Below, piece by piece: positions 3,443 to 59,968 of a stretch of DNA of 64,000 bases. The translations under genes and the position numbers were made by a program. Numbering within the stretch: the first letter of the stretch is position 1; each line of letters begins with the position of its first letter. The notes beneath the pieces were generated by a model. That model did no database searches. It saw only the letters and a program-made list of their open reading frames with translations, and was not told where the DNA came from. The DNA lies in the NCBI GenBank assembly GCA_964467905.1, contig CAYXSY010000002.1:13545-77544 (forward strand), read 5' to 3'. The stretch is from an uncultured Planctomycetales bacterium. GTDB taxonomy: Bacteria; Omnitrophota; Gorgyraeia; Gygaellales; Profunditerraquicolaceae.

Positions 3443-4321
3443 CTATTTTGTTTCTTTCTTGTTCTCCATTTTTAACGGCAAAACCCCTGCCATCTCACTC
3501 ACAATATTAACCAACTGCTGGTCAGAAGGAACGACTATTTTAGCATTTGCGGCCAATGACTTCTCTACTGCCTCTATCCTGCGCAGGACCTGTGCATTGC
3601 CGACAAAATACTTCTCTGCCGCTTCGTTAACCAACCTTATTGCCTCTGCTTCACCTTCAGCCTCTAATATGCGCGCCTGTTTAACGCCCTCGGCTTTCTT
3701 AATCTCTGCCCGTTTTTGCCCGTCTGCGGCAGTTTCAGTTGCGGTAGCAAAATCAACAGCAGCGATTTTCTCATTTTCGGCCTTAACAACCTTATTCATC
3801 GTCTCCTGAACATCCTTAGGAGGATCAATTTCTTTCAATTCAGTCCTGACAATCTCAATCCCCCAGCTTTTGGTTTCTTCGCAAAGCGTCTTATGTAGCT
3901 CTTCATTAATCTTACCGCGCTCGCTGTTAGCGGATTTTAAAGTCAATGTACCGATTATGTTCCTTAGTGTGGTCCTGGCCAGGTTAACTATCTGCCACTG
4001 ATAATTATTAACATTATACTGAGAATTCTTTACGCTTTCCTCATCCGCTTTGACTTTAAAATAGACCTGGGCGTCAACCCTTGCATTCAAGTTATCGTTG
4101 GTAATAATCTCCTGCGGTTCGGCATCAACCATCTGTTCGGTTATATTAACCGAATATAAATGCTCAAATACCGGTATCACCCAATTAAAGCCGGGAGTGG
4201 CAAACCGGTTATATTTGCCTAATCGTTCAATCAAGCCTCTATGAGTCGGTCTGACAATTCTAATCCCGGCGATAAACACAATGACAGCAACAAATACCCC
4301 CCAATATAACAAATTAGCCAT
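3443..4321 (-). CDS. SPFH/band-7 (stomatin/HflC-like) membrane protein
   Basis: N-terminal TM segment, then an SPFH core (GLIERLGKYNRFATPGFNWVIP ... RTELKEIDPP) and an Ala/Glu-rich coiled-coil tail. Confidence 0.85.
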   Translation of the reverse strand: MANLLYWGVFVAVIVFIAGIRIVRPTHRGLIERLGKYNRFATPGFNWVIPVFEHLYSVNITEQMVDAEPQEIITNDNLNARVDAQVYFKVKADEESVKNSQYNVNNYQWQIVNLARTTLRNIIGTLTLKSANSERGKINEELHKTLCEETKSWGIEIVRTELKEIDPPKDVQETMNKVVKAENEKIAAVDFATATETAADGQKRAEIKKAEGVKQARILEAEGEAEAIRLVNEAAEKYFVGNAQVLRRIEAVEKSLAANAKIVVPSDQQLVNIVSEMAGVLPLKMENKKETK

Positions 4322-12805: not shown

Positions 12806-12858
12806 TAAGGCTCAACCTCGGCCTCGTGGTGAGCGAGGCCAAAGGCCGAGTCGAACCA

Positions 12859-13198
12859 TTGCGGGGGCCCGATTTGAACGGACGGCCTTCAGGTTATGCT
12901 TACTACTGCAGCTTTCGCTGCCCCAGAGTTATTTTGAATAGGACTTAAAAAGTTAACCCTGGGTTTGTAGTCTGGACTATACCTTGATCCTTACAGGACC
13001 CCTGCCATCTAGTCTCTACACCTTCTCCAACAGAACATCGAAGATTGGCTCGGTATTACTTCCGGTTTTATCCGAGAGCTTCACCGAATTTGACAGGTTA
13101 TCCTCCAGCCGTTGCCGGCTAGGGAGCCCATTATCCCGCCCTTGCACGCAAGGACGGGACATTGAGCCTGACGAGCTACCAGACTGCTCCACCCCGCG
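12859..13198 (-). tRNA. initiator tRNA-Met (anticodon CAU) interrupted in the anticodon loop by a group I intron; no encoded CCA
   Basis: The 5' exon is cgcggggtggagcagtctggtagctcgtcaggct (13198-13165). The 3' exon is cataacctgaaggccgtccgttcaaatcgggcccccgcaa (12898-12859). Joined, they give a 74-nt cloverleaf almost identical to E. coli tRNA-fMet as I recall it. It has the C1xA72 mismatch and A11:U24 pair typical of bacterial initiators. Confidence 0.9.
12899..13164 (-). ncRNA. group I (IC3-like) intron within tRNA-fMet
   Basis: 266 nt. The splice sites were chosen so that the 5' exon ends in U and the intron ends in G. It contains GTCAAATTCGG (13094-13084) and GAAGGTGTAGAGACTAGA (13025-13008), which match the tRNA-intron core strings I recall from the Azoarcus/cyanobacterial introns. 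A 10-bp P2-like hairpin cccgtccttg/caagggcggg lies near the 5' end. Confidence 0.85.
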
Positions 13199-13326
13199 AT
13201 ATTAACTATCATAGTGGAATTCCAAACCTACCGAGGAACTCCATCTTGCGAAATTAAACAAAAAACTTATTTCCAGATATAGCAAATATTATATCAGAAT
13301 ATAGAAATACTACAAACAATATTTTA

Positions 13327-25626: not shown

Positions 25627-25699
25627 AGCCGATGAGAGGGATCGAACCTCCGACCCGCGCTTTACGAAAGCGCTGCTCTACCAACTGAGCTACATCGGC
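25627..25699 (-). tRNA. tRNA-Thr (anticodon CGU)
   Basis: The minus strand reads GCCGATGTAGCTCAGTTGGTAGAGCAGCGCTTTCGTAAAGCGCGGGTCGGAGGTTCGATCCCTCTCATCGGCT. This folds as a cloverleaf with anticodon loop TTCGTAA. Confidence 0.9.
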
Positions 25700-25873
25700 A
25701 GGAATATTACGCAGCCTACCAAAGCTATAAACTCTAAAGAATAAAAGAGTTAAGCCGCAATTCAATACAGCTAATAAATTATATCAACTTTTAAGTAATA
25801 GTCAATGCAACTCTATGCTCGTCCGGAGGCCGATTGATAAAGCCGATTCCTTAAGGGATTATGTAAAAAATGG

Positions 25874-25901
25874 TTGACAAACCACCAAAAAGTGATATAA
25901 T
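25874..25901 (+). promoter_or_regulatory. sigma-70-type promoter for cspA
   Basis: TTGACA (25874-25879), a 16-nt spacer ending in TGa, then TATAAT (25896-25901). It leaves a ~175-nt leader, which is typical of cold-shock genes. Confidence 0.6.
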
Positions 25902-26083
25902 TTTTAACAAATCAGCAAGGTTTTAAAAGGAGTTACCTATTTTTTGCAAGGATTTAACATACCGTAAAGCAATGAAATATAAGGAATTACTTTGCTTTAC
26001 GGTTTTTTATTAATTCCGCCCAAAGCGGAATGCAACGCCCCGGATAACCCGGGGATTCATTTGAGGAGGTGAAATAGTAACAA

Positions 26084-26290
26084 ATGGCAAAAGGTAAAGT
26101 GAAATGGTTCAGTAATCAAAAAGGCTACGGTTTTATCACGGGTGAAGACGGCAAAGACGTATTTGTCCATCACACCGCAATCAAAGGCGAAGGCTACAAA
26201 ACCTTGGAAGAAGGACAAGAAGTAGAATTTGACGTAACCCAGGGACCTAAAGGAGACCAAGCTACCAACGTAAGCAAGTTAGGTAAATAG
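26084..26290 (+). CDS. cspA: cold-shock protein (CspA family)
   Basis: [15 protein letters not shown] (RNP1) and VFVHHTAI (RNP2). Confidence 0.95.
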
Positions 26291-26313
26291 GCTCCTAAAA
26301 ATAAAAAAAATAA

Positions 26314-26349
26314 CCCCCCGTACTGATAACTCAATGCGGGGGGTTTTTA
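26314..26349. terminator. bidirectional rho-independent terminator between cspA and the convergent 172-aa gene
   Basis: CCCCCCG...CGGGGGG stem followed by TTTTT on the plus strand, with an A-rich run on the other side. Confidence 0.7.
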
Positions 26350-26361
26350 TATCTTACGCAA

Positions 26362-26880
26362 TTATTCCTTTACGAATTTACCTCCAACCCAAACCCAAGA
26401 ATCCCAGGCAGGCATGAATGTCGAAGTATTATTAAGCTTGGAAGCTTTACCGACCCTAATCTTAGGTATAGTCTGAAAATCTGTATCTAATCCGTATTCG
26501 CTGGTAGCGGAGAAAATCTTATATAATTTGTTATTTTTCAATTGGTAAACTACGATGTTCTCTTTTTTATCCGGACCGTCAAAATGTACCACCAGCTTCT
26601 TAAATCCATCGTAATCAAAATCTACTAGTTCTAGCTTTATGATTTTTCCGGGAATCACCAGGCTATCTATAATGTCTTTTGTCTTGTTTCTTTCTTTCAC
26701 CGATAAAACAAACACGCCTTCGCTCGAGTATTTATCTTCTATCTCGACAATCTTCTTTTTACTATCAGCACCTAAATCAGCGTTATAAGACTGAATGTTC
26801 TTGTTATTTTCTTTAGCATAAACAACGCCCACAGAACCAAAAGATAACAACAATAATAAGACTGCAAGAAAAATCCTCAT
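26362..26880 (-). CDS. secreted protein of unknown function
   Basis: Cleavable signal peptide (MRIFLAVLLLLLSFGSVGVVYA) and a GGAGG Shine-Dalgarno upstream. Confidence 0.6.
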   Translation of the reverse strand: MRIFLAVLLLLLSFGSVGVVYAKENNKNIQSYNADLGADSKKKIVEIEDKYSSEGVFVLSVKERNKTKDIIDSLVIPGKIIKLELVDFDYDGFKKLVVHFDGPDKKENIVVYQLKNNKLYKIFSATSEYGLDTDFQTIPKIRVGKASKLNNTSTFMPAWDSWVWVGGKFVKE

Positions 26881-26930
26881 ATCGCCTCCTTGTTATTTAA
26901 TAATTATACCATCTAAATTAAAAACTGCAA

Positions 26931-26970
26931 AAACAAAAAAAGAGCAACTTTTTAAGCTGCTCTTTTTTCT
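26931..26970 (-). terminator. hairpin plus T-run; would terminate the tRNA-Phe transcript in the unoccupied site
   Basis: The minus strand reads AGAGCAGCttaaaaaGTTGCTCT followed by TTTTTTTT. A T-run is also present on the plus side. Confidence 0.55.
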
Positions 26971-27022
26971 ACATGGTGCCAAGATCCCTCGTTTCACTCG
27001 GGATCGGCACTGACATACAAAA

Positions 27023-27042
27023 ATATGGTGCCGAGGGAGGGA
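27023..27042. repeat. distal att direct repeat (ATATGGTGCCGAGGGAGGGA)
   Basis: 20/20 identical to 59891-59910, which covers the last 17 nt of tRNA-Phe plus 3 nt. It is followed by a 9-bp inverted repeat CGAGGGAGG/CCTCCCTCG (27032-27058). Confidence 0.9.
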
Positions 27043-27112
27043 TATTATACCTCCCTCGTACAAGTAGTTAATATAGCATAGGTTAGAATTGATGTCTATC
27101 ATTTTTGAGACT

Positions 27113-28222
27113 TTAGATGGACGATAAATCGTCCTGCTTTTTGGCTCCTAATGTGAATCTTTCCTTGAATATCCTGGCTTTGTAGTCTTCGGCCAAGTGC
27201 TTATACTTGTTCATGGTCTCGGCGTCAGCCCAACCGCCTAACTCCTGAATTACATCTAGAGGCACGCCACGCTCAGTCATAAGCGAGGCCCAAGAATGCC
27301 TAGTTTTGTGAAGTTTTTTAACCGGCAGTTCGGCTGCCTTACAGATTTTCTGGAACTCCTGACGGATCTTATCTTGGCCAAGGATCTTAGTGACCGAATT
27401 TACGAAAACCCACCTTTCGTTCTTCTTAGGCAATTCCTTTAATATAGGTAACAATTCCGGATGAATCGGTATCGTCCGCATTTCTTTGTCTTTAGGCTCA
27501 AAAAACAGCTTTTCGTTGATATGTTTTGGCTTGATGTAAATGCATCCACGCTCTAAGTCTAAATCCTGCCAAGTTAAGTACCTCAACTCATTCCTACGCA
27601 TGCCGGTATAAAAAAGAGTCGCAAAGATAGCGTGCCAGTTTATTTTCTTACAGAACTGCTTGGAAACCTCCAGTATCTTTAATACCTCTTCATCGCTATA
27701 GAAGAAACCATCCTGGCTAGGCACAGACAAGAGGCTGGTATTCTTCACCGGGTTTTCAATATGCAAGTTTTTCTCTTTGATTAGCAGATTAAATAAGTTA
27801 CTTAAGGTGTCCCTTTCAAAGTTAATGGTCACCGGGCTTATCCCATTTTTAAGCCGGTAATTCATAAATTCGCTAAAATGCCTAGTTTCCAGTTCGTCAA
27901 GATAGTTTAACGAAGGGTATTTTTCTACGATAAACTGCTTGAAGTTATTGATGATTTCCTTAAAGCGCTGTAAGCTATTCGGCTTAACTCTACCTTCCTT
28001 AATTTCGTAATAGGCCTCAATAGCCTGCTTCAACGTAACCCGGTAAGTAGGATACGGGCTATTTTTGCTCTTTAGCTGCTTAATATAATCCGCATAGGCG
28101 AATTTGGCTTCCTCTATAGTTTCGCCTAGCCTAATCCAGGGGCGTGAGCCATCTGGATTAGTTATCCGCATTACATAATACCTTCCCCTCTTTTTGGGGA
28201 ATTTCGGTAAACCTCTACTCAT
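27113..28222 (-). CDS. int: tyrosine recombinase / phage-type integrase
   Basis: SAM-like N-terminal domain plus a catalytic domain with ...YTGMRRNEL..., HKTRHSWAS (HxxR) and the ...MNKYKHL Tyr region. Confidence 0.9.
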   Translation of the reverse strand: MSRGLPKFPKKRGRYYVMRITNPDGSRPWIRLGETIEEAKFAYADYIKQLKSKNSPYPTYRVTLKQAIEAYYEIKEGRVKPNSLQRFKEIINNFKQFIVEKYPSLNYLDELETRHFSEFMNYRLKNGISPVTINFERDTLSNLFNLLIKEKNLHIENPVKNTSLLSVPSQDGFFYSDEEVLKILEVSKQFCKKINWHAIFATLFYTGMRRNELRYLTWQDLDLERGCIYIKPKHINEKLFFEPKDKEMRTIPIHPELLPILKELPKKNERWVFVNSVTKILGQDKIRQEFQKICKAAELPVKKLHKTRHSWASLMTERGVPLDVIQELGGWADAETMNKYKHLAEDYKARIFKERFTLGAKKQDDLSSI

Positions 28223-42700: not shown

Positions 42701-45462
42701 ATTGATAACGCCGCCTTCCAGCCGCTGTTTAAACCTTTCCACCAATTGGCAGCGTATTCCCTAAATTCAGGATGCTTCTCTTCGGCTTGGGTAACCTGCT
42801 GTTCTGCGGTATCAAAACGTTTCTCCAGATCAGATACCTTTTGCTCTAAAGATTGGCTATCTTGCTCAAGAGAAGAGATTCTTCCTTCGGCTTTTTTCTG
42901 CTCAACAGTAAGATGCTCCACTGCCTGCTTGGCTGCTTGGTTTTCCTGCTGGGCTTGAGATAACTGATGTTCTACTTCTACCAGGCGTTTCTCGGTTTGG
43001 GATTTATCTTCTCTTTGAATAGACGCAGGCGGAGTTTCGGGCGCTTGCGACTGTGAAGGAGCTGTAACCTTAACCGGCACTTCAGGCGCAGGAGTTTTTT
43101 CAGGCTGGGCAGACGCGGTTGTAACTTGCGGTGTCTGCTGCACAGGAGTTACAACCGTAGGTTGTACTTCAGTCCTGCCTAAAAGCTTATTTGCTGCCTG
43201 GGTATCTAAGGTGGGTAAAGTTACCGGCTGGTTTGGACGAAGCAAATTAGGATTAGCCAGATTATTGACGCTGGCAAGCTGTTCAACTATACCGTCCCTG
43301 CCGTAAAGTAAGGCTGCGGTAGGCTTCTTGCCCTGCGCCAACAAAACATCCCTGCCAATGCCGCCTAAAGTATCTTCTGCCGGCGTATCCCTATGCCAAA
43401 CCTGCACAATTGCCTGGGGCGCGCCTTCCGGGTTAGCGGCAAAATAATGCGCGGCAGCCGGCTGGGAGGTAAATAAAATTGACGCGATGGCTAAGCTTAA
43501 GAAAATCTTTCTCGCCTTTTTCTTAAAGGCAGTTAAGGCCTGACTTAAATAACCTGGCTGGATTGAGGTAGACACTGTTACCTGGATGTCTTTGGGCTTA
43601 GTTGGCTCCTTGGCAATGAGTGATGTTTTATCTTTCCGCGGCTGGCGGGGAGTTATAGGCGAAGAGGATTCTTTTTGTTCTTTTTTGGCAATAACCGTTG
43701 CGGGCGCAAATTCTCCTAAGGCAAGCTCGACTGCTTTTTGGTCTTCGGCGGATAATCTTAATCTGGATAATTGCGCCTGAATTTCTCTGGTTGGGTAATA
43801 TCTGGTTGAACGGGCAATCCAGTAGTTAATCAGAACCTGGCGGGCTTGCGGATCCGAAATACTGTTAATAATCTGTAAGGTGTCGGGATCGTTTAAAACA
43901 TCCTCTAAAGGAAGCTTTTTGTCTTTAAGGTAGGAAAAATAAACGGTTTCTTTATCCTGGCTCGCCTTAATATTAGGAGCAACGACAACATATGAGATAT
44001 CTTTCTCCTTTAGGATTGAGGTAATACCTTGGGTATGAAAACCGCCGGCAACCAAGATCAGTGAATTTGCGCTGTAGTCGCGGTTCATCCTGTTTAACGA
44101 ATTGCCGACCATAGCTTTATCCCGGTCATAAGCAAGGGAATAGAATTTATCCAAAGAGGCGATATCTCCATCCGTAGGTAGAGAGCTTAAAACCCTGGAG
44201 TTGGTGTATTTCTTTAAGGTTAAGATAAGGTTCTTGGAATTAAAGGCACCGCGGTTCTTTTTGAAATACTCATAGTCCTTGGGAGAAAGGTTGATACTGG
44301 AAAGCCCTTTGAGGATGCGTATTATATAGGTAAGGGAATCCAGGTCCTTTTGCACGGAATTGGTAATCAGCTTTTCCTTTAAGGCCTGGGTAAAATCATC
44401 AACCTCGGCAAAGAGCCTAGAGTTATCCAGGTTTTCTGATAGGCGAATGTATTTAATATAAGAGAAAAGGTTATTGTAGGCGCTTGTAGGAATTTTTGCT
44501 TTATCAGTCAATTCTTCAAGGTAAGTATAGTATTCAGCCGGTTTGATTTTATCTACCTTAAAATCAAGGCTCTTTTTAACCAGTTCCTCTAAGTCAGATT
44601 TGGATAGGGCTTTCGTTAGAACATCAATCAACTGCTGGCGTTCGATTTCCGCCTGGTCAAAGTTAATCCTAGTTTCCAGTTCTTGCAAGCTGATGATCCG
44701 GGAAAGATTCGGATATTCGGAAAGATTAAAGTTATTGATAATTGAGGCTATATTTAGGTAAGAAAGATACTCCTCTAGAGAAATCCTCCCCTCCTTAAAG
44801 TCGGAACTACGGGAATCAAGCTCTTTTAGGTCCTTAGAGTAGTATTTATTCTTTAGGGTAGTGATGACCTCTTCAATTACCCCGAAGCTTGGGTTTAGGG
44901 ATTCGGAAATGCGCTGGTTGTCCTTAAAGGCATTCAGGTGGCTGGCGTAGAGCTCTTTATCCTCTGCGCCGTAGATAACCGGGGGCTTGTCTTCGGTGAT
45001 TAGAAGATAATCCGTGCCTGAGATAAAGGCCTTGGAGAGAAAATACTTGGCGATTTTCTCGCGTATCTTTTTATCTTTGGGGAAGCTTCTGAAAAAATCA
45101 GCGTCAAACTCGCCGAACCCGCCTTCAACCGAAACCAGGTTCGCCTTATATTTATCCTTTAGGTATTTAATAAGCCGGGATTCGTTTTCCTGCGCCTCTG
45201 GATTGGCATGGGCGTCCTGAATATGAATCACTAAACGCGAGGAATTGTATTTTGAAGTATAGGAATCCTTAATTACGCCTAACTCTTGGGGGATATCGAT
45301 TGCGGAAGGATTGCTTTGTTCGGAAGGCTGCCAGGATTTCGAACCTAAAACCTCACCTGCCTTGGCCCAGGAAAGATCATATGCAAGAAAGCAGACAATC
45401 AAAACAATACAGATTGTTTTAATGAATATTCTTAATTTTTTGTGCGCCTGCCAATTTAACAT
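30703..45462 (-). CDS. giant multi-domain membrane protein (4,919 aa)
   Basis: Uninterrupted 14,760-nt frame with an ATG start. At least 7 hydrophobic segments. Approximate nt ranges: N-terminal domain with IHIQDAH and AGGFH motifs (43990-45290); LysM-like segment (43210-43410); ~640-aa coiled coil (41070-42990); HAD domain 1 FDIDDTL (40230-41050); HEAT-like repeats and a poly-Pro tract (38020-40090); two ~880-aa repeated modules, each ending in a HAD domain (32520-37950); LOG-like Rossmann domain (31620-32080); unknown C-terminus. Confidence 0.85.
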   Translation of the reverse strand: MLNWQAHKKLRIFIKTICIVLIVCFLAYDLSWAKAGEVLGSKSWQPSEQSNPSAIDIPQELGVIKDSYTSKYNSSRLVIHIQDAHANPEAQENESRLIKYLKDKYKANLVSVEGGFGEFDADFFRSFPKDKKIREKIAKYFLSKAFISGTDYLLITEDKPPVIYGAEDKELYASHLNAFKDNQRISESLNPSFGVIEEVITTLKNKYYSKDLKELDSRSSDFKEGRISLEEYLSYLNIASIINNFNLSEYPNLSRIISLQELETRINFDQAEIERQQLIDVLTKALSKSDLEELVKKSLDFKVDKIKPAEYYTYLEELTDKAKIPTSAYNNLFSYIKYIRLSENLDNSRLFAEVDDFTQALKEKLITNSVQKDLDSLTYIIRILKGLSSINLSPKDYEYFKKNRGAFNSKNLILTLKKYTNSRVLSSLPTDGDIASLDKFYSLAYDRDKAMVGNSLNRMNRDYSANSLILVAGGFHTQGITSILKEKDISYVVVAPNIKASQDKETVYFSYLKDKKLPLEDVLNDPDTLQIINSISDPQARQVLINYWIARSTRYYPTREIQAQLSRLRLSAEDQKAVELALGEFAPATVIAKKEQKESSSPITPRQPRKDKTSLIAKEPTKPKDIQVTVSTSIQPGYLSQALTAFKKKARKIFLSLAIASILFTSQPAAAHYFAANPEGAPQAIVQVWHRDTPAEDTLGGIGRDVLLAQGKKPTAALLYGRDGIVEQLASVNNLANPNLLRPNQPVTLPTLDTQAANKLLGRTEVQPTVVTPVQQTPQVTTASAQPEKTPAPEVPVKVTAPSQSQAPETPPASIQREDKSQTEKRLVEVEHQLSQAQQENQAAKQAVEHLTVEQKKAEGRISSLEQDSQSLEQKVSDLEKRFDTAEQQVTQAEEKHPEFREYAANWWKGLNSGWKAALSILAAFGAGLGFMRLYVYRKWSRIRELRDDIRRRQADKDRLDEEIDASQEQLAAVRADLERSQRALEEAEQKRKVQEEVLAKTQARSDTLETTPSGDDSLRQAIEQLEREVASRKSTIAKEISDEEGRLSRLRKELENLEKEHRHYEERIAQLQSQAKALEDELRVLEQTKASQEAQIQEETASARSQLAETQQAVLKAQQNLSALAVNLESLQVKKKESEDALVSLEGKKDALEKELSGLSRQQEELVQAIADLNSRKEELARQQQALDQAVDDRQKELADLERKIKGLETKGAREDTQIVSLKERKKNLETEISKLSQDISGLYKERGQSAQETERLRTYLSALEKQKQESEAAIHAFEDDRRNLSAEVSALQAQHRDLAAEVRRIEQNAASFQQDSQTKTASLDAETAQRQRQLEELRTKAASLAAQKTQLEQELSDLSRRKQQETQALEQALKQKQEIEERIASLNTQLEEVRQEVSNLTVHLDELKAREVSLDTEVPALTRKREALEEETSRLQRTKEELEQRVSVFSAEVRPAGVKPTPLELAKPYSVMMFDIDDTLTNTVTDIDRSMLGELIVFLEKGAYIVLISMQGKDEIYKHIVEPFYSYYGAKKELLERLIIYTAGGAECYRFDKGGNIFKEKAYDPLKNSVFEKEIPGDDDHDKEWNQAFVEDAVKARLAEHGYRNINLTNVRQNPLKRHGAITISVRKQEDRSKVSAILTDLFSEKGWHLQPRSGGRHTVHVLIGGVNKATAAEHSLRIIEHDAGAKIPYEQVFFAGDSFSAGGLDTDVISVLPGGHIVSVGRKPERDVLKNLQKLGIVFSEDLVGERNWPATYKILLEIEKGKRINDIGKDRSSDSGFGKVLRSILPVMFATFSFFPSFVSYADYVTVSPEARAQIERAVIVADTKSEDSLTESLDAVFTQYNYENDIAKINKAIELIRSKKVSDSRIIKVLQWVIVEADTSDNKFYPDTTLQASLALMDLGSSGQEALAKILRNPELLNKAVRLLKVLDAVSKTKSHSTAILDSLQWLAFKAYAGRETYDADVVRTVAAILLSDGGTNRIIDSLTPENYLARCILPAVFEAIKDSNVSDQGLISKLYWIVTDAVLEGGYYLDGTIPPAARALYRIKTNEALNKFKRALSRSDWRGRDGAAEAIIAIATEQGERVTPEVKTALEQVVALGSGHDFRQIAVRKAKALLEKIPLKPGSGKVEMVELAPLEVSKPIPHPPVPPPPPKTKVITTPAPAPAAAEPITLGMYQENPQKVIQILDQIVSNRDDNLTEKTKQVLLYSNADRSVHPDVIKKAVSILSSYYGGRLTLAELFTSENYQNNPAALLTVINALSSDVLEKPNLSIGENFLKALARIVIEPSSGGNYYPDINSAAINKLDELCQGSYSSSRWILLEPFTPENYRDKPAQLALVIDALSKKDHALTGAVTEKLVWVVRYQEPDGSQNVALAKTAMQALRKCPNYVSSDLIMGVNPIDFFIECLPHPDEEIRLIAVNELVERKVPKNKIEPVFQSESIAARDAARQILESLYPETKGTMFLSEEEARSSLFSYEKHHSAAQALRDFNQDKPWKEKVPAYLLSYLANTYIWLSVLLGIGSVILAITLVNLNHQVNKVYKRLLAYAGSTTFRERLTLKRIAVSLAYRESYGMYDPAGLIARNLPSISKTSKIKQIEKLALFLDKLNKSGFNSQYILEHGVPLVSRIAKDEAEFDKGLALLESLAAGLKLYNVDIRTVNLEANNLGKLIDSLAVFEAVCGFIKGSVSQNKQALSELLTAVVPDAFKGAKDANVKVERLGIIRQLVLGGLHPTRLLIETLQKTTSQSQASEQIAQWKKLLSDFKSGAVRFDPNNPLHVDLEYNTYRALAPQVSLSTSYKDYKEFIKGFHSSTGSASSLGNQEAGEIRLAVYEAYRLLEFIIAVKQKADKLGRPVWVVPNLSYGKFAVSPILDELARLGIEIHYAKVGSTECHNNPQLVKQGLFTDDVYQRILRERPVIIAVDGTKHLLARPNERKSSRYPDAYVGYRNLIVAVDDVLSGGNADAFHDRVRISTDFLNQLRQNSSDYNTLVSKLKTLASDSGQDVPLYRLEFWNPGGLQLVIREARQEVQNVTPFDPEHLDSPALIFINSPLLDEDIPKDIKKWSGLEGTHEPAFFDDRGQIQQNALAVNGRGLYLTHALEFETTRASQQLKGFYKGKLPQVEYKEPTPEAVRNTYEAMLFDLDGTLTDTLKDIDKALLDKLIYLLSSGVIIGIVTSQSLDEVREHILDRVDVDKKQHLGNLFLYANRGVQLYNFDGKANPILVSDRSQTDVTGEQCALIRNLINQALGTLNGSVKVIDRGAQLSIHLDKHKDKRDLVNTTLVQLIAANNLPFQTEYSGTSTIHVVLKGADKGSAKDNFLGQVFPSRLNRPVDLSKLLIVGDRFAQAGSDQPMVTAGARVVSVGKEKGLPAGVEDYPHHGWRGTDQLLGEIIHRAGSTTVSSPLSAFIGSLSLPDLWQSFGASLEGLYDASKMPLLYAGIATLGLAFIFVSTVSAIKLYKTGRLYREIIRAVSFLERKERIFLFREISRHVSWKKIQSIEPYQLFINMLPVLSKGIQDKRIQEINNAAARLRKAKINPRHVFKYCLPAISAKAGDEKQFANSLNLAERFALTLQDKHYDYHELLKNIMPQVERNTRSIDELNEAMLLGINLLKSGRNPTFALAKMLPEVVNLTKDLSDFKLGIYALQELCLAGFEPTRYLLAELIKQGTKAKIDSAVLTWQEIRRKFKTGDVAFNPKNELHVNLEYTTFRELVDRTLKQTHRYSYAEYLEILKNFNNGAKHASVDGREKAEVKFAAYEAYRLREFILQVKRQADKMGRAVWVVPNLSYGRFAVSPLLRDLAKDGIEVHYARIGSSESHEHPTLVKPDLFSANLYDRILNEQPVIIVVDGTQHLLARPKDRKSGRYPDAYVGYRNLIIAVNDIVSRGQEQMFKRNVKTSGHFIRDLMKKGDYKTLRRRLLRLFDPTVKTRRYLYDVGFWNPGGLELVIREDRQEVRRVRAISADDVVQPAMIFVNSAMLDEDVPVFMRSWITKGKKMHHLPAYFDDTSHIQRLIFNVDATGVSLSDALNENVRREYGRIKGIYQQRLKIPAKPNDLVNLPYKAVVSDLDGTLANTLEEVPKPVMEKLLYLLGLGVQVAIVTTQSYKEVERYLLSQVPAQNKALLSNLTIYAATGSQAYGFDKHGNTLPQPLYNTAGSELAERQMQSWRKAIDSIFKEYGLDREAKNKKGQVVAGPARLIDAGSQIIIRLKERGFLRREIRKRLQAALGREQLPIVLKEIGRTSIRMTIKGVDKSIAVKYHLTTVCKDRFGFEPKPGEVLILGNSFEEDGDDRDMMLKSARVFSVGGRPFLHYLRGGISFYPQGGWQGSNQLLAEFINSLSSSPAETPKPQAKPELVKLNSFNFLPFLAAGGSGVLENTDPFTSFIVGCLAGIIATVLIFRNRIFASDRPENEEDFKEEPQPNVSAQSAKPREKTPALTVRPVRRVLKPYDFDSAAQGIREQYPGIRIGVIGATIPARGYSQKIGMELGRRLRRFVGEGGFVFTGGVAGVGVDVYRGALEESQGKDDRFFALLPEDMDADYEYSAFGPRKVETVHFGRDMFERRIGMGKVADVVIILNGRGGTLHEAIAALEAGRKVIALDYGGAGSLLYHARARNELHPGLIQQGLRPEYFENIVLADLDNIEEALGSLQQGQMASTTTPNFIPSVSPTPESIPQAQLDPFAKTFFTVNQSGNMGLSRNAIYAINSLSQAYSGLTLEVDVDTLIDTSKGAPQLKGLGFTEALASLYQAQEKKQIPKNLRVRLININPRLNKQKIIKVLGLTEDLLKKMVAIPDIPEDYLIKTLEPYLIAGSVRIIFEDNVRYWGKKVDVLVRRGEETQTLSSLGLIVAVLAKEPKFYASLPAEVKEYIAAKTDEKGNIELDDEGKIKEIIFKPIEKTKVDTQYLEELDKANKELEGMA

Positions 45463-45579: not shown

Positions 45580-45608
45580 AGTATACAATATATATATATA
45601 TATATCAA
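45580..45608 (-). promoter_or_regulatory. candidate promoter of the giant ORF with an (AT)9 tract in the spacer
   Basis: The minus strand reads TTGATA (45608-45603), a 17-nt spacer, then TATACT (45585-45580). 15 of the 17 spacer nt belong to the (AT)9 run at 45588-45605. It lies ~115 nt upstream of ATG at 45462. Confidence 0.5.
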
Positions 45609-45804: not shown

Positions 45805-45853
45805 CCAAAATAAAAAGCCGAACTGATTGACCCTTATAATCATCAGTCCGGCT
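45805..45853 (-). terminator. rho-independent terminator separating the upstream small genes from the giant-ORF unit
   Basis: The minus strand reads AGCCGGACTGATGAttataaggGTCAATCAGTTCGGCT followed by TTTTATTTT. Confidence 0.6.
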
Positions 45854-45934
45854 TTAAAAAGTTTTTTGACTTTTCCGTGGCTTACCGGATATTCTGTTAA
45901 ACAGGCCTCCACCTGCTTAACAGCGAAACTCTAT

Positions 45935-46147
45935 CTAAGACCATGGGCAGATTAACGCATGGTTGATAACCTTACAAAAACAATACAGCCCGCATAAACC
46001 GCAGTGGCGGGGCATTCTATTGGCTTTTAAGCGCGGCACATATTCCTGTTTTGCGCGCTTGATTAAAAAATCTAAGTCTTCTTGTGTATGGTTTGCTTTT
46101 GCCATAATCTCCTCAACTGTCTTTCTGCTTTTCTTTTGTTTTTTCAT
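45935..46147 (-). CDS. hypothetical basic protein (70 aa)
   Basis: Open frame only. It has Cys-rich C-terminal motifs (HCGLCGLYCFC), and its start overlaps the small zinc-ribbon ORF in another frame. Confidence 0.3.
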   Translation of the reverse strand: MKKQKKSRKTVEEIMAKANHTQEDLDFLIKRAKQEYVPRLKANRMPRHCGLCGLYCFCKVINHALICPWS

Positions 46148-46244
46148 GAACCTCGCAGTATATACCGCCGCATTTACAGATTACACGGCCGGGCGATGCG
46201 CTAAAACCAACAGCTTTACAGATTGTGCATCTTACTTTGACCAT
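46113..46244 (-). CDS. 43-aa zinc-ribbon-like peptide (below the ORF-track cutoff)
   Basis: MVKVRCTICKAVGFSASPGRVICKCGGIYCEVHEKTKEKQKDS has CxxC...CxC...C spacing. An AGAAGG Shine-Dalgarno lies 6 nt upstream of the ATG. Confidence 0.3.
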   Translation of the reverse strand: MVKVRCTICKAVGFSASPGRVICKCGGIYCEVHEKTKEKQKDS

Positions 46245-46275
46245 CGCAGGCCTTCTTTCAAAAGCTTAAAGCGAC

Positions 46276-46485
46276 CTAGAGGACCCTGCGAGAGGAAATG
46301 GAGATTAATATCTCGCTTGGCAAAATATTATCTCCCGGTACTTCCCCAAGGTCGCCTATTATTTCTTTAATGCGTTTCTTAGGAGTAATCCTGATATACC
46401 CAATCAACCCGGCAATTAAAGGGAAATGACAATGCCTTGTGGTTTCGCACAAATCGTGGGCTATTTTATGCATATCCATAAGCAA
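46276..46485 (-). CDS. hypothetical protein (69 aa)
   Basis: ATG preceded by AAGGAGGAAA. I recognise no motif. Confidence 0.45.
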   Translation of the reverse strand: MLMDMHKIAHDLCETTRHCHFPLIAGLIGYIRITPKKRIKEIIGDLGEVPGDNILPSEILISISSRRVL

Positions 46486-55873: not shown

Positions 55874-58114
55874 CTATAACGTATACTTAACTATGCTTCC
55901 GATAAGCTTATTCCTTTCTTTTTCGTCAAACAAAAACTCATGGTTTGCGATTCTAGCAAGACCACCCCGTAGGAAGATTACGCTCTTTTTAAAAGGCAAC
56001 CTTAAAAATATGTTCTCTGAGATATAGTTCTTCTTGGCGGTATAAATAGAGCCTGCGCCTGTTCTTAGGCCATCAATCATGCCTTGTTGGGAAATTAGGG
56101 TATCCTTGGCCTGGTAGGTAGTCTGGCCGGTCTTACCGGACCAGAATTCAGCGTCTTTGGGATCTTCCTGCAAGAAAATAATCTTGGTTGCGGTATTGGT
56201 AAAGATAGCATTCTCGAATGCCGCTGATACGCTGGATAAATTTCCCCGAGATTGATTGGAGAGCACCAGACAAAAGTTAGCGCTCCTGACCTTGGAGATC
56301 ACATCTACAAAATGCGAACAGGCCAAATTCTGGAACTCATCGATGAAGACAAAGTATGGCGGATCAATCTCTTGCCTGACCACGGCCTGGGCTTTTAAAT
56401 CAATAATCAGCATCCTACCAATTGCTTCGGCTAGACGCGTATTCACTTGGCTTTTTAATGCAAAGAAGATGATGTCGCCGTTTTTAATCACTTTGGCTAA
56501 ATTAAGTTCGTCTTTATTCAGGGCATCCAGGCCAGCGATGCAGGAAATCGCCGCAAATAATCCCTTAACCTCTTGGCTGCTTACATTCAGCGCCTCGAGA
56601 AAATATGGGTCCTCAAGGGCGTTTCTAACCGTAAAGAAATTTATCTCTTTTTTCTCATCGGTCATTTCCTTTAATAAATCTACAAAAGCCATGGTCTGGA
56701 CATTGGAGTAAAAGCCTGCCGGGCCGTGGTAAACCAGCTCTAATGCGTTCATAATCCGGTCTACCTTGGAATGGATATCTCCCGAAGACAGCGGATTATA
56801 TCCTATCGATGACTCATCCGGGTCAATGCTGAAATAATAGAATTTCTTACCCTTTTCCCCGGCTTTTTGCTGGACGTATTTCTTAAATACTTCATCCCCC
56901 TTAAAATCTACGAAACAGCATCCCCTGCCTTTTTCTATTGCCTGCTTGGCCAAAGGCAGAATTATCAACGACGTCTTGCCGCTTCCGGTAGGCCCTAAGA
57001 CGTGCAGATGATGGCTAAGCATTTTTTCTTCTGCTACAATATCGCCTTTATCATCGCCCAAGCCAAGGAAATATTTATCGGTGTTGGTGTAGCGCGCTAT
57101 TTTTTTATTAATATCGTAGCTGGCCTTCTTAAATTCGACGGTTTCGATAGAGAGTTCTTTCTTTTTCTCAAGGTCCTTATCTATCTTGTAGAAATCTTCC
57201 AGCTTACGCCTCTGGCGTGGCAGGACGTGCCGGGTGAAGTAAATATACCCGAGATAACCAAGCAGGATAACCGATAAAACCAAAGCCAAAACCAAAAACC
57301 ACCTGCCTTCTTTTAAAATAAACCCGTGCCAGAAGCTCCACTGGATAACCTGCCAGCCTTCATTACTGAAGGCTAGACTCGGGTCATGAAAACCGATCCT
57401 GCCGAACCAATAGCTGAATACCCAAAGCAGATAATAACCCCAAAGTTTAATGCTCTTTAACTGATAAGCGATAAACAAAACCGATAGACCGAATAACCCC
57501 AAGATATCATTAGGTATTAAGCCACGGGAAAATACCCGCCCCATCCTTGAGGATAAAAGTACAGTCTCAGAGTAAAGCCAGGGGTATTTTTGCTCTATCT
57601 TTGCCGGAAACAGATAATCTTTGAGCTTTTTTAGATCCTCTGTACGATTGGTGTTTTTTAAGAAATCAGAGAATTGGTCGATAGTTAAAAAACCTATGTT
57701 TTTACCCGGCTCTTTAAGCTGGCGACAAGCAACCTGAGAATATCTGCCGGTAAGCAAAAAGGTCTTTTTCCAACCGTAAGGATTGGTTTTCATATAGGCA
57801 GGCGGAAACTCAAAAAACCAGGTTTCCGGCAGGACAAAATAGCCGTGTATTTTTAAAGGGGTTGAGTCTTTGTCAGCATCCTTTGGCTGCCCTGGCGGCA
57901 CAACCATTACCAAGGCATCGGTTCCGAAGGTCTCCTTTAAGGATGAGCCCAAAAGATGCGTTTTCATTACTGCCGGGATATCCTGATACGAGCCGAAAGT
58001 AATAAATTCAGTCCCGTAATGAACCCCTACCCACCAGCCAAAGCCGATGTAAATAAGCGGAATTGCGATTAAAAACCGCCAACAAAGAGTACCGAAACTA
58101 ACATTCTTCTCCAT
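55874..58114 (-). CDS. type IV coupling protein-like ATPase (VirD4/TraD/TraG family)
   Basis: N-terminal polytopic membrane domain, Walker A VLGPTGSGKTS, Walker B YFVFIDEFQNL, and a LVLSNQS sensor-like motif. Confidence 0.8.
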   Translation of the reverse strand: MEKNVSFGTLCWRFLIAIPLIYIGFGWWVGVHYGTEFITFGSYQDIPAVMKTHLLGSSLKETFGTDALVMVVPPGQPKDADKDSTPLKIHGYFVLPETWFFEFPPAYMKTNPYGWKKTFLLTGRYSQVACRQLKEPGKNIGFLTIDQFSDFLKNTNRTEDLKKLKDYLFPAKIEQKYPWLYSETVLLSSRMGRVFSRGLIPNDILGLFGLSVLFIAYQLKSIKLWGYYLLWVFSYWFGRIGFHDPSLAFSNEGWQVIQWSFWHGFILKEGRWFLVLALVLSVILLGYLGYIYFTRHVLPRQRRKLEDFYKIDKDLEKKKELSIETVEFKKASYDINKKIARYTNTDKYFLGLGDDKGDIVAEEKMLSHHLHVLGPTGSGKTSLIILPLAKQAIEKGRGCCFVDFKGDEVFKKYVQQKAGEKGKKFYYFSIDPDESSIGYNPLSSGDIHSKVDRIMNALELVYHGPAGFYSNVQTMAFVDLLKEMTDEKKEINFFTVRNALEDPYFLEALNVSSQEVKGLFAAISCIAGLDALNKDELNLAKVIKNGDIIFFALKSQVNTRLAEAIGRMLIIDLKAQAVVRQEIDPPYFVFIDEFQNLACSHFVDVISKVRSANFCLVLSNQSRGNLSSVSAAFENAIFTNTATKIIFLQEDPKDAEFWSGKTGQTTYQAKDTLISQQGMIDGLRTGAGSIYTAKKNYISENIFLRLPFKKSVIFLRGGLARIANHEFLFDEKERNKLIGSIVKYTL

Positions 58115-59890: not shown

Positions 59891-59910
59891 ATATGGTGCC
59901 GAGGGAGGGA
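59891..59910. repeat. proximal att direct repeat (3' end of tRNA-Phe)
   Basis: Identical to 27023-27042. Confidence 0.9.
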
Positions 59911-59968
59911 ATCGGACCCCCCACGCCGGCCTTTTCAGGGCCGCGCTCTACCACTGAGCTACCTCGGC
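59894..59968 (-). tRNA. tRNA-Phe (anticodon GAA), CCA encoded
   Basis: The minus strand reads GCCGAGGTAGCTCAGTGGTAGAGCGCGGCCCTGAAAAGGCCGGCGTGGGGGGTCCGATTCCCTCCCTCGGCACCA. This folds as a cloverleaf with anticodon loop CTGAAAA. The T-loop reads TCCGATT. Confidence 0.9.

Follow-up and report, generated by a model that had tools for sequence, protein, structure and literature searches.

The giant gene and its surroundings

The window, i.e., the whole stretch of DNA that was analysed, is 64,000 nucleotides long and originates from an uncultured member of the Omnitrophota. The bacteria of this uncultured phylum are very small and possibly predatory, and their giant genes are thought to be important in cell-cell interactions. 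Promoters and phase variation are not mentioned in the published work on these giant genes that was searched. Loci from other genomes and contigs are referred to by L numbers.

The window contains a giant ORF of 4919 aa (14.8 kb) on the minus strand, with its start codon at 45462. In the encoded protein, an N-terminal membrane anchor is accompanied by at least four further hydrophobic segments; the other features recognized are a long coiled coil, three HAD-like modules and a C-terminal SLOG domain. The protein is predicted to be membrane-embedded, has enzyme-like HAD/SLOG domains and is not an obvious surface antigen. The N-terminal 620 aa represent a family in Candidatus Omnitrophota; in alignment-based scans, 456 matches from GTDB species genomes and 474 from JGI metagenomes were confirmed. 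The closest relatives from these scans are at most 75% identical, and all are without the promoter-plus-leader module described below. A metagenome scan with the single N-terminal protein yielded 229 pattern matches, none of which was confirmed, and an exact look-up of the giant protein found no record.

Three small ORFs (45935-46485, minus strand) are located upstream of the giant gene, behind a strong promoter at 46532-46504. They encode a 67-69-aa protein, a 43-aa zinc-ribbon-like protein (CxxC...CxC) and a 70-aa protein ending in HCGxCxL...CxxVxxxLICPW; no Pfam match was found for the three. L007 and L169 encode counterparts of the 43-aa and 70-aa proteins ahead of their giant gene; the 70-aa type was found there in L003, L008 and L087 as well, and homologues of the 67-aa protein occur in L168-L170. 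Two of the three ORFs were skipped by the gene callers in L002.

On the other side of the giant gene, a tRNA-Thr gene is followed by a tyrosine integrase gene (27113-28222), both within 25627-28222. A TraG/VirD4-like coupling protein (55874-58114) and a tRNA-Phe (59894-59968) are encoded beyond the giant gene. The region with integrase and coupling protein may be an integrative element; no att-like repeat of the tRNA-Thr of 14 nt or more was found. The G+C content of the giant gene is 0.445-0.48, that of the flanks 0.40-0.43. A 266-nt group I intron (RF00028, 12959-13163, 50.3 bits) splits a tRNA-Met gene (CAT; 12858-13199, minus strand) after position 36; the 5' half of this gene is initiator-like (CGCGGGGTGGAGCAG...). 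The gene was missed by default ARAGORN and called with introns allowed. Group I intron matches were also seen in L041, where the 3' part of a 23S rRNA gene (1-1498) contains one match above the gathering score (67 bits) and a weaker second one (30.1 bits vs a gathering score of 50). In that locus a 5S rRNA gene follows the 23S part, just upstream of a member of the giant-gene family.

Promoter, AT tract and leader elements

The features upstream of the giant gene are listed below in the direction of transcription.

46532-46504, minus strand: upstream promoter TTGACA-17-TATACT (11/12, with TG), predicted to drive the small-gene unit, with transcripts running into the ancestral leader
45941-45712, minus strand: relic ancestral leader, conserved in orthologues
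45923-45894, minus strand: hairpin P0 of the relic leader, with UGGAGG loop
45881-45875, minus strand: GCCACGG of the relic leader
45855-45804, minus strand: terminator-like hairpin P2 and T-run of the relic leader
45787-45768 with 45741-45722, minus strand: anti-start helix of the relic leader
45751-45716, minus strand: 11-codon uORF of the relic leader
45738-45736, minus strand: old start codon, part of the relic leader
45738-45466, minus strand: ORF beginning at the relic ATG; its 90 open codons span the AT tract
45737-45463, minus strand: lineage-specific segment of approximately 276 bp, absent in 14 orthologues, present in L169
45620-45615, minus strand: alternative -35 hexamer TTAACT, pairing with TATATT at a spacing of 2n+4
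45608-45603, minus strand: -35 hexamer TTGATA (sequence and promoter scan)
45605-45588, no strand: (AT)9 simple sequence repeat (TRF); the homologous tract in L169 (4094-4105) is (AT)6
45592-45587, minus strand: alternative -10 hexamer TATATT, formed by the 3' end of the tract and one T
45585-45580, minus strand: -10 hexamer TATACT, predicted start at approximately 45573-45571
45579-45463, minus strand: leader of the AT-tract promoter, predicted to be structured (MFE -44 kcal/mol, z = -4.7 vs shuffles)
45541-45535, minus strand: GCCACGG in the AT-promoter leader (sequence)
45534-45519, minus strand: hairpin P1 in the AT-promoter leader (predicted fold)
45516-45470, minus strand: intrinsic-terminator-like hairpin and tail, TTTTGTTTGTA; 14 pairs (45516-45481), a diverged copy of the ancestral P2
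45462-30703, minus strand: giant ORF, start homologous to the start of the orthologues

The -35 hexamer TTGATA matches TTGACA in five of six positions, and its last three bases come from the AT tract. It is separated from the -10 hexamer TATACT by a 17-nt spacer, TATATATATATATATTG (45602-45586, minus strand), 15 bases of which are also supplied by the tract. The predicted hexamers score 10/12 (5/6 + 5/6) in the promoter scan, and the promoter lies 118 nt upstream of the start of the giant ORF. An earlier note on this DNA had described the same hexamers and spacing, which were borne out by reading the minus strand and by the promoter scan; its (AT)9 run at 45588-45605, with the share of the spacer and the overlap with the -35 hexamer, stands in the sequence exactly as it was given there.

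The (AT)9 repeat is 100% pure and the sole dinucleotide array that TRF reports in the window, the longest other dinucleotide repeat having four units. Under a first-order Markov model, alternating A/T runs of 18 nt are expected about 1e-5 times per 64-kb window, and 841 kb of other Omnitrophota loci contain one dinucleotide repeat of at least six units, an (AT)6. Of dinucleotide shuffles of the 472-nt intergenic region, 4.3% contained a coding-strand promoter match of at least 10/12. The tract is therefore very surprising against chance, and the hexamers alone only mildly so. Neither a divergent gene nor a plus-strand promoter-like site overlapping the tract was found; the flanking units are on the same strand.

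The tract and its surroundings are absent from 14 orthologous loci with 55-75% N-terminal identity (L003/L086/L088, L004, L005-L008, L087 and L089-L093). In the window, a segment of approximately 276 bp is situated between the ancestral leader with the old start codon and the present ATG, which corresponds to the start of the orthologues. This segment holds the promoter and a diverged second GCCACGG/terminator-like element (45544-45474). The same layout was found in one further lineage (L169, see below), and an insertion in the common ancestor of the window genome and L169 would be the best explanation. BLAST found no second copy or donor of the 275-nt segment in the window and loci L001-L165, and a repeat search found no terminal inverted repeats, so that an origin from a MITE or IS element is unsupported.

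The leader of the orthologues begins with a covarying hairpin with UGGAGG loop, followed by CCGGy...GCCACGG and an optional hairpin. Next come a terminator-like hairpin with conserved sequence (GCCGGACUGA/UCAGUYYGGC) and U-run, and a TTCTTAAGAA palindrome. The 3' part contains AAAGTCCAAAATCCT, which is able to pair with the start-codon region AGGATGTTGGACT, and ends with a strong Shine-Dalgarno sequence with a short uORF and the start codon. When a profile of 10 orthologous leaders (the window left out) was searched with nhmmer, window positions 45889-45808 were matched with E = 7e-12. The match of the second copy (45544-45474) is end-to-end but weak (E = 1.2 over 1.8 Mb searched). No sigma-70-type promoter was evident between the ancestral element and the gene in the close orthologues that were checked, and sigma-54 and other promoter types were rejected there on inspection by eye. 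The hairpin and T-run at 45855-45804 had been taken earlier for a terminator (45805-45853) supporting an independent transcription unit. Hairpin and T-run are real, but this is not simply the end of an upstream unit, because the hairpin is an ancestral leader element that directly precedes the orthologous gene, with no sigma-70-type promoter evident between the two.

Some further observations concern the orthologue-type leader (window 45941-45712; L005-L008, L087, L089-L093). GCCACGG is invariant in it. The sequence conservation of the terminator-like hairpin is unusual for a plain terminator, and truncated folds contain a possible competing helix (CCGGC/GCCGG, CGGCA/UGCCG). The orthologous start codon lies in AGGATGTTGGACT, the pairing partner of the conserved AAAGTCCAAA(A/G)TCCT, with the Shine-Dalgarno sequence and short uORF left in the loop. 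This pairing looks like a start-codon sequestration that could be relieved by translation of the uORF, which would explain the DNA-level conservation of the first codons (MLDW). A response-regulator gene is located directly upstream of the leader in L169 (3049-3756) and in most orthologues, and is absent there in the window lineage, in which the leader follows a small Cys-rich gene instead (45930-45960).

In the leader of the AT-tract promoter, the U-run of the second hairpin (U6GU3) ends 8 nt before the ATG. Taken by itself, this hairpin looks like an efficient intrinsic terminator. At least 12 distant homologues share this layout, i.e., promoter, conserved leader, (G)CCACGG hairpin with U-run and ATG, and no further promoter is evident in them between hairpin and gene; regulated read-through is therefore probably the norm in this gene family. 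A possible antiterminator pairing, CGGCUU/AAGCCG, overlaps the 5' half of the hairpin, with thin covariation support. Neither the window nor 12 related loci gave a relevant match to the covariance models of Rfam 15, whether gathering or relaxed thresholds were applied. A hairpin with T-run was found in 11 of 54 family leaders and in 12 of 54 reverse-complement controls, and only the GCCACGG subset of these hairpins is convincing.

A leader family was recognized in diverse Omnitrophota (L033, L034, L038, L040, L041, L065, L074, L115, L122, L128, L129 and L142). It comprises TTGACA-16/17-TATACT, a GAAAGCGCTTTC-type palindrome, AAAGTC, a hairpin based on (G)CCACGG/CCGTGG(C) and a U-run, with the start codon 10-40 nt past the U-run and no match in Rfam. 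These leaders are a candidate attenuator or regulator-binding leader for the giant-gene family.

The tract and the promoter in related loci

The 67-aa neighbour gene has a homologue on L169, a 62.6-kb Logan contig (SRR29782965) that was reached by this route. Over its first 323 aa, the giant protein encoded there shares 87% identity with that of the window, and relic leader, old ATG, insertion, promoter, second element and real ATG are arranged as in the window. The two upstream regions are 87% identical overall in pairwise alignment. The tract of L169 is (AT)6 where the window has (AT)9. The alignment contains a single clean 6-nt gap, confined to the tract, and the flanks are identical over 21 nt upstream and 17 nt downstream. 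The tract length thus differs between related genomes, as the earlier note had proposed to check, in a comparison of two lineages with approximately 13% divergence in this region. In L169 the pair TTGATA/TATACT is 11 bp apart, which would be too close for the two to function as a pair, and the scan finds TTAACT-16-TATATT (9/12; L169 4079-4106) instead; in the window (n=9) the spacing of TTAACT and TATATT is 22 bp. From this alignment, the repeat number has changed since the two lineages split, with hexamers and surroundings unchanged. The difference of nine versus six units indicates a mutable tract; because it separates lineages with approximately 13% divergence, it is no demonstration of high-frequency reversible switching. 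In L169, either the promoter would be dispensable or the weaker 9/12 alternative would be used.

The (AT)9 repeat is also present in the Logan contig L002 (SRR15237811), which is 100% identical to the window over 2.8 kb. Since L001 and L002 are both 100% identical to the window, they represent the same strain, and their (AT)9 is no independent test; two runs of the window strain both assemble as (AT)9. Other look-ups with the neighbour genes gave only same-strain contigs (L001, L002 and L085) and contigs of related strains, close relatives of L169 among them, that end before the tract. The latter are L166 and L167 (ERR7850082/83, a strain with approximately 93% identity), L168, L170, L171 and L172. 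Short-read contigs of several samples break in or near the ancestral leader and relic start, namely L001 (window 45727), L172 and L168/L170/L171. A mixture of co-occurring strains, differing at the boundary of the insertion, may lie behind these breaks.

The ORF from the relic start codon crosses the insertion, the tract and the hairpin and is closed by a TAG (45468-45466) one codon before the real ATG and in frame with it. A frame open over such a length was found in 0.3% of 20,000 dinucleotide shuffles (P = 0.003). In L169, the relic ORF (3962-4228) is open for 88 codons and ends with a TAG two codons before the ATG. Indels of -1 and +1 shift the middle of the frame between the two ORFs, so that the open frame is kept and the peptide is not. 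The relic leader is the best-conserved stretch of the comparison (92% identity); the 5' part of the insertion and the coding start are 80-81% identical. Past the tract, each of the three frames is open until a stop within approximately 11 nt of the real ATG. A protein-level frameshift switch was rejected, as none of the frames leading out of the tract continues into the giant ORF. The open relic ORF suggests a second, promoter-independent route by which the giant gene could be expressed. The ancestral route may still work, and the giant gene might not need the AT-tract promoter; an active promoter could exist beside this route.

Across the gene family, the coding strand carries a promoter of at least 10/12 no more than 300 nt ahead of the start codon in 56 of 111 non-redundant homologous Omnitrophota loci, compared with 12 of 111 in the opposite-strand control. 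Spacers and hexamers were tabulated for 55 of these family promoters; the spacer is 17 nt in 37, 16 nt in 18 and 18 nt in none, and the commonest -10 hexamer is TATACT (24 of 55). The family promoter type was described as a TTGACA-like hexamer and TATA(C/A/T)T with a spacer of 16-17, approximately 35-250 nt upstream of the start on the coding strand. The window site (5/6 + 5/6, spacer 17, 118 nt upstream) fits this type. By the tabulated spacers, a 2-bp change in spacing would leave the range that is used by the family promoters. The -10 context TTGTATACTT recurs in L033, L034 and L038, where that of the window, ATATTGTATACTT, is found again nearly exactly. Alternating AT runs of up to 11 nt occur inside several family spacers (L061, L142, L127). 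Within the window, 12 sites of at least 10/12 fall in 7.2 kb of noncoding sequence and 15 in 56.8 kb of coding sequence, i.e., noncoding sequence is approximately six times denser in such sites, which argues that the organism uses sigma-70-type promoters. Two of the matches in the window are perfect (12/12).

Proposed mechanism, alternatives and meaning

The reading considered here as the main one, with a probability of approximately 0.5, is that of an active promoter with attenuation in the leader behind it; a slippage-prone tract would set the spacing of this promoter and with it its activity. A promoter-plus-leader module of approximately 276 bp would have been inserted between the ancestral leader with the old start and the present start. 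With nine units, TTGATA and TATACT would stand at 17 bp, the spacing most used by the family promoters. Slipped-strand gain or loss of one unit would change the spacing to 19 or 15 bp, outside the usable range. The spacing of the main pair equals 2n-1, and this pair would be usable only at n=9. The second pair, TTAACT/TATATT, would be usable at n=6 or 7, where its spacing of 2n+4 gives 16 or 18 bp. At n=8 and at n of 10 or more, neither pair would be usable. The tract would thus act as a spacing dial that turns initiation on or off, or moves it to a different start. Transcripts would then cross a structured leader of 111-117 nt, whose hairpin and U-run end just before the ATG, and a second control of the attenuation type is likely according to the predicted fold. 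Activity of the promoter, an effect of its spacing on expression and read-through of the hairpin are all inferred from sequence.

Several points count against the promoter-switch reading. A hairpin resembling an efficient terminator stands between promoter and ATG. Half of the -35 hexamer is supplied by the tract itself, and the match occurs in 4.3% of shuffles by chance. There is only one simple sequence repeat in 64 kb, where classical contingency genomes carry many. The protein, with its enzyme-like HAD and SLOG domains, is not an obvious surface antigen. Finally, the relic ORF is open through the tract (p = 0.003), which suggests expression without the AT promoter. The earlier note had proposed a phase-variation switch like that of the hif genes; the anatomy, the family-type promoter and the change in tract length agree with it, but the length difference lies between lineages, and a switching rate is not demonstrated by it. 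True phase variation overall is regarded as rather doubtful.

What competes most seriously with an active, tract-tuned promoter, although it is held to be possible rather than probable, is a translated leader that contains the tract as a neutral microsatellite, the promoter match being incidental. The giant gene would then be expressed in the ancestral way. Transcription from 46532-46504 would run through the GCCACGG/terminator-like element, and ribosomes would start at the relic ATG (45738) under control of the anti-start helix and uORF, melt the second hairpin, stop at the TAG at 45468-45466 and re-initiate at the ATG at 45462 by translational coupling. The relic frame speaks for this, as it is open over 90 codons (P = 0.003) and ends in frame one codon before the real ATG, and as the L169 frame is also open (88 codons) with a changed peptide; however, the argument is drawn from only two lineages, which are not independent. 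All frames past the tract end near the ATG, so that slippage would not break the coupling, and the relic leader is best conserved (92%). Lack of an evident sigma-70-type promoter between element and gene in the close orthologues points to read-through as the ancestral state, but transcription from upstream must cross three terminator-like hairpins. The hexamers of L169 are 11 bp apart, as an incidental match would allow; in the window, hexamers, 17-nt spacer and -10 context match the family promoters too well for an accident. This explanation is moreover compatible with an active promoter.

It is also conceivable, though distinctly improbable, that the promoter is real and its main product is an RNA of approximately 105 nt ending at 45516-45470, i.e., a small RNA or a constitutively terminated leader, in which case the tract would tune that RNA and not the giant gene. 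The 14-pair hairpin with U6GU3 directly before the ATG and a leader that folds far better than shuffles (z = -4.7) would suit such a product. The layout is shared by at least 12 distant homologues, but since no other promoter is evident past the hairpin in them, it argues for read-through or regulated attenuation rather than for a separate RNA gene. The possible antiterminator CGGCUU/AAGCCG over the 5' half of the hairpin points the same way, and no Rfam family matches. That the tract or its length is an artefact of assembly or sequencing is effectively excluded. Microsatellites are error-prone in some sequencing chemistries; against this, the window and the second-run contig agree on (AT)9, the contig of an unrelated study has a homologous tract at the same place, and typical assembly k-mers are longer than either tract (18 and 12 nt).

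Host-adapted pathogens account for nearly all known cases of promoter switching by repeats. Among the genes with promoter repeats of the homopolymer type are opc, fim and vlp. In Haemophilus influenzae, a (TA)9-11 repeat between -35 and -10 sets the spacing of the hifA/hifB promoters (van Ham et al. 1993, as summarized in PMC2651432 and PMC3899988). The (AT)9 of the window exceeds the threshold of five units described for dinucleotide SSRs in H. influenzae and lies within the hif range (PMC2651432). As in hif, the repeat unit is the same, the unit number nearly equal, the spacer filled by the repeat, the step size 2 bp, and the tract length different between related genomes. Unlike the window tract, which serves one direction, the hif tract serves two divergent, overlapping promoters. 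Switching of hif was shown experimentally and within strains, whereas the window locus is known from one difference between lineages. The host also differs, being an uncultured environmental member of the Omnitrophota and not a host-adapted pathogen, as does the target, which is a 4919-aa multi-domain membrane protein behind a terminator-like leader hairpin and not a pilin. By its sequence, the site has a repeat over the length threshold, within the spacer, with a length difference between genomes and conserved flanks; the bidirectional arrangement specific to hif is absent. The AT-tract promoter is a credible hif-like candidate with partial support, which would work like the hif switch on paper.

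Homopolymer repeats in promoter spacers are known from porA of Neisseria meningitidis, and promoter repeats from Bordetella pertussis and Mycoplasma hyorhinis (PMC3899988). As in these promoters, the number of repeats between -35 and -10 would set transcription, graded or on/off. Homopolymer tracts change in 1-bp steps with intermediate levels, whereas the window tract changes in 2-bp steps and only n=9 suits the main pair. With leader attenuators and riboswitch platforms, the window shares the hairpin and U-run before the start, the possible alternative pairing over the 5' half and a layout conserved across the family; it differs from them in having no known ligand or factor, no Rfam match and thin antiterminator covariation. 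Termination-reinitiation coupling is resembled in both lineages by a relic ORF that stops 3-6 nt before the ATG of the giant ORF and in frame with it. Unlike in classic coupling, this ORF is a by-product of an insertion with microsatellite, promoter and terminator-like hairpin, and its peptide is unconserved.

In the most far-reaching form of the proposal, which is unlikely as a whole, (AT)n would switch a promoter of recent acquisition among three states, two with different hexamer pairs and one off, giving subpopulations with and without the costly 4919-aa membrane protein. The insertion would have bypassed the ancestral attenuator-plus-uORF control, and the ancestral route would survive as a translated leader in which all three frames end at the start codon, so that the repeat could slip without breaking this route; the locus would then be the first of the contingency type in Omnitrophota.

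The site represents a candidate for a repeat-switched promoter in a phylum without such control described in the giant-gene literature searched. Its origin would be unusual, namely the capture of a promoter by insertion between an ancestral leader and its gene. As a case of regulatory rewiring, an insertion of 276 bp would have put a family-typical promoter and leader before a gene whose relatives appear to rely on read-through. If the switching were true, free-living or episymbiotic environmental bacteria would join the organisms that use microsatellites for bet-hedging.
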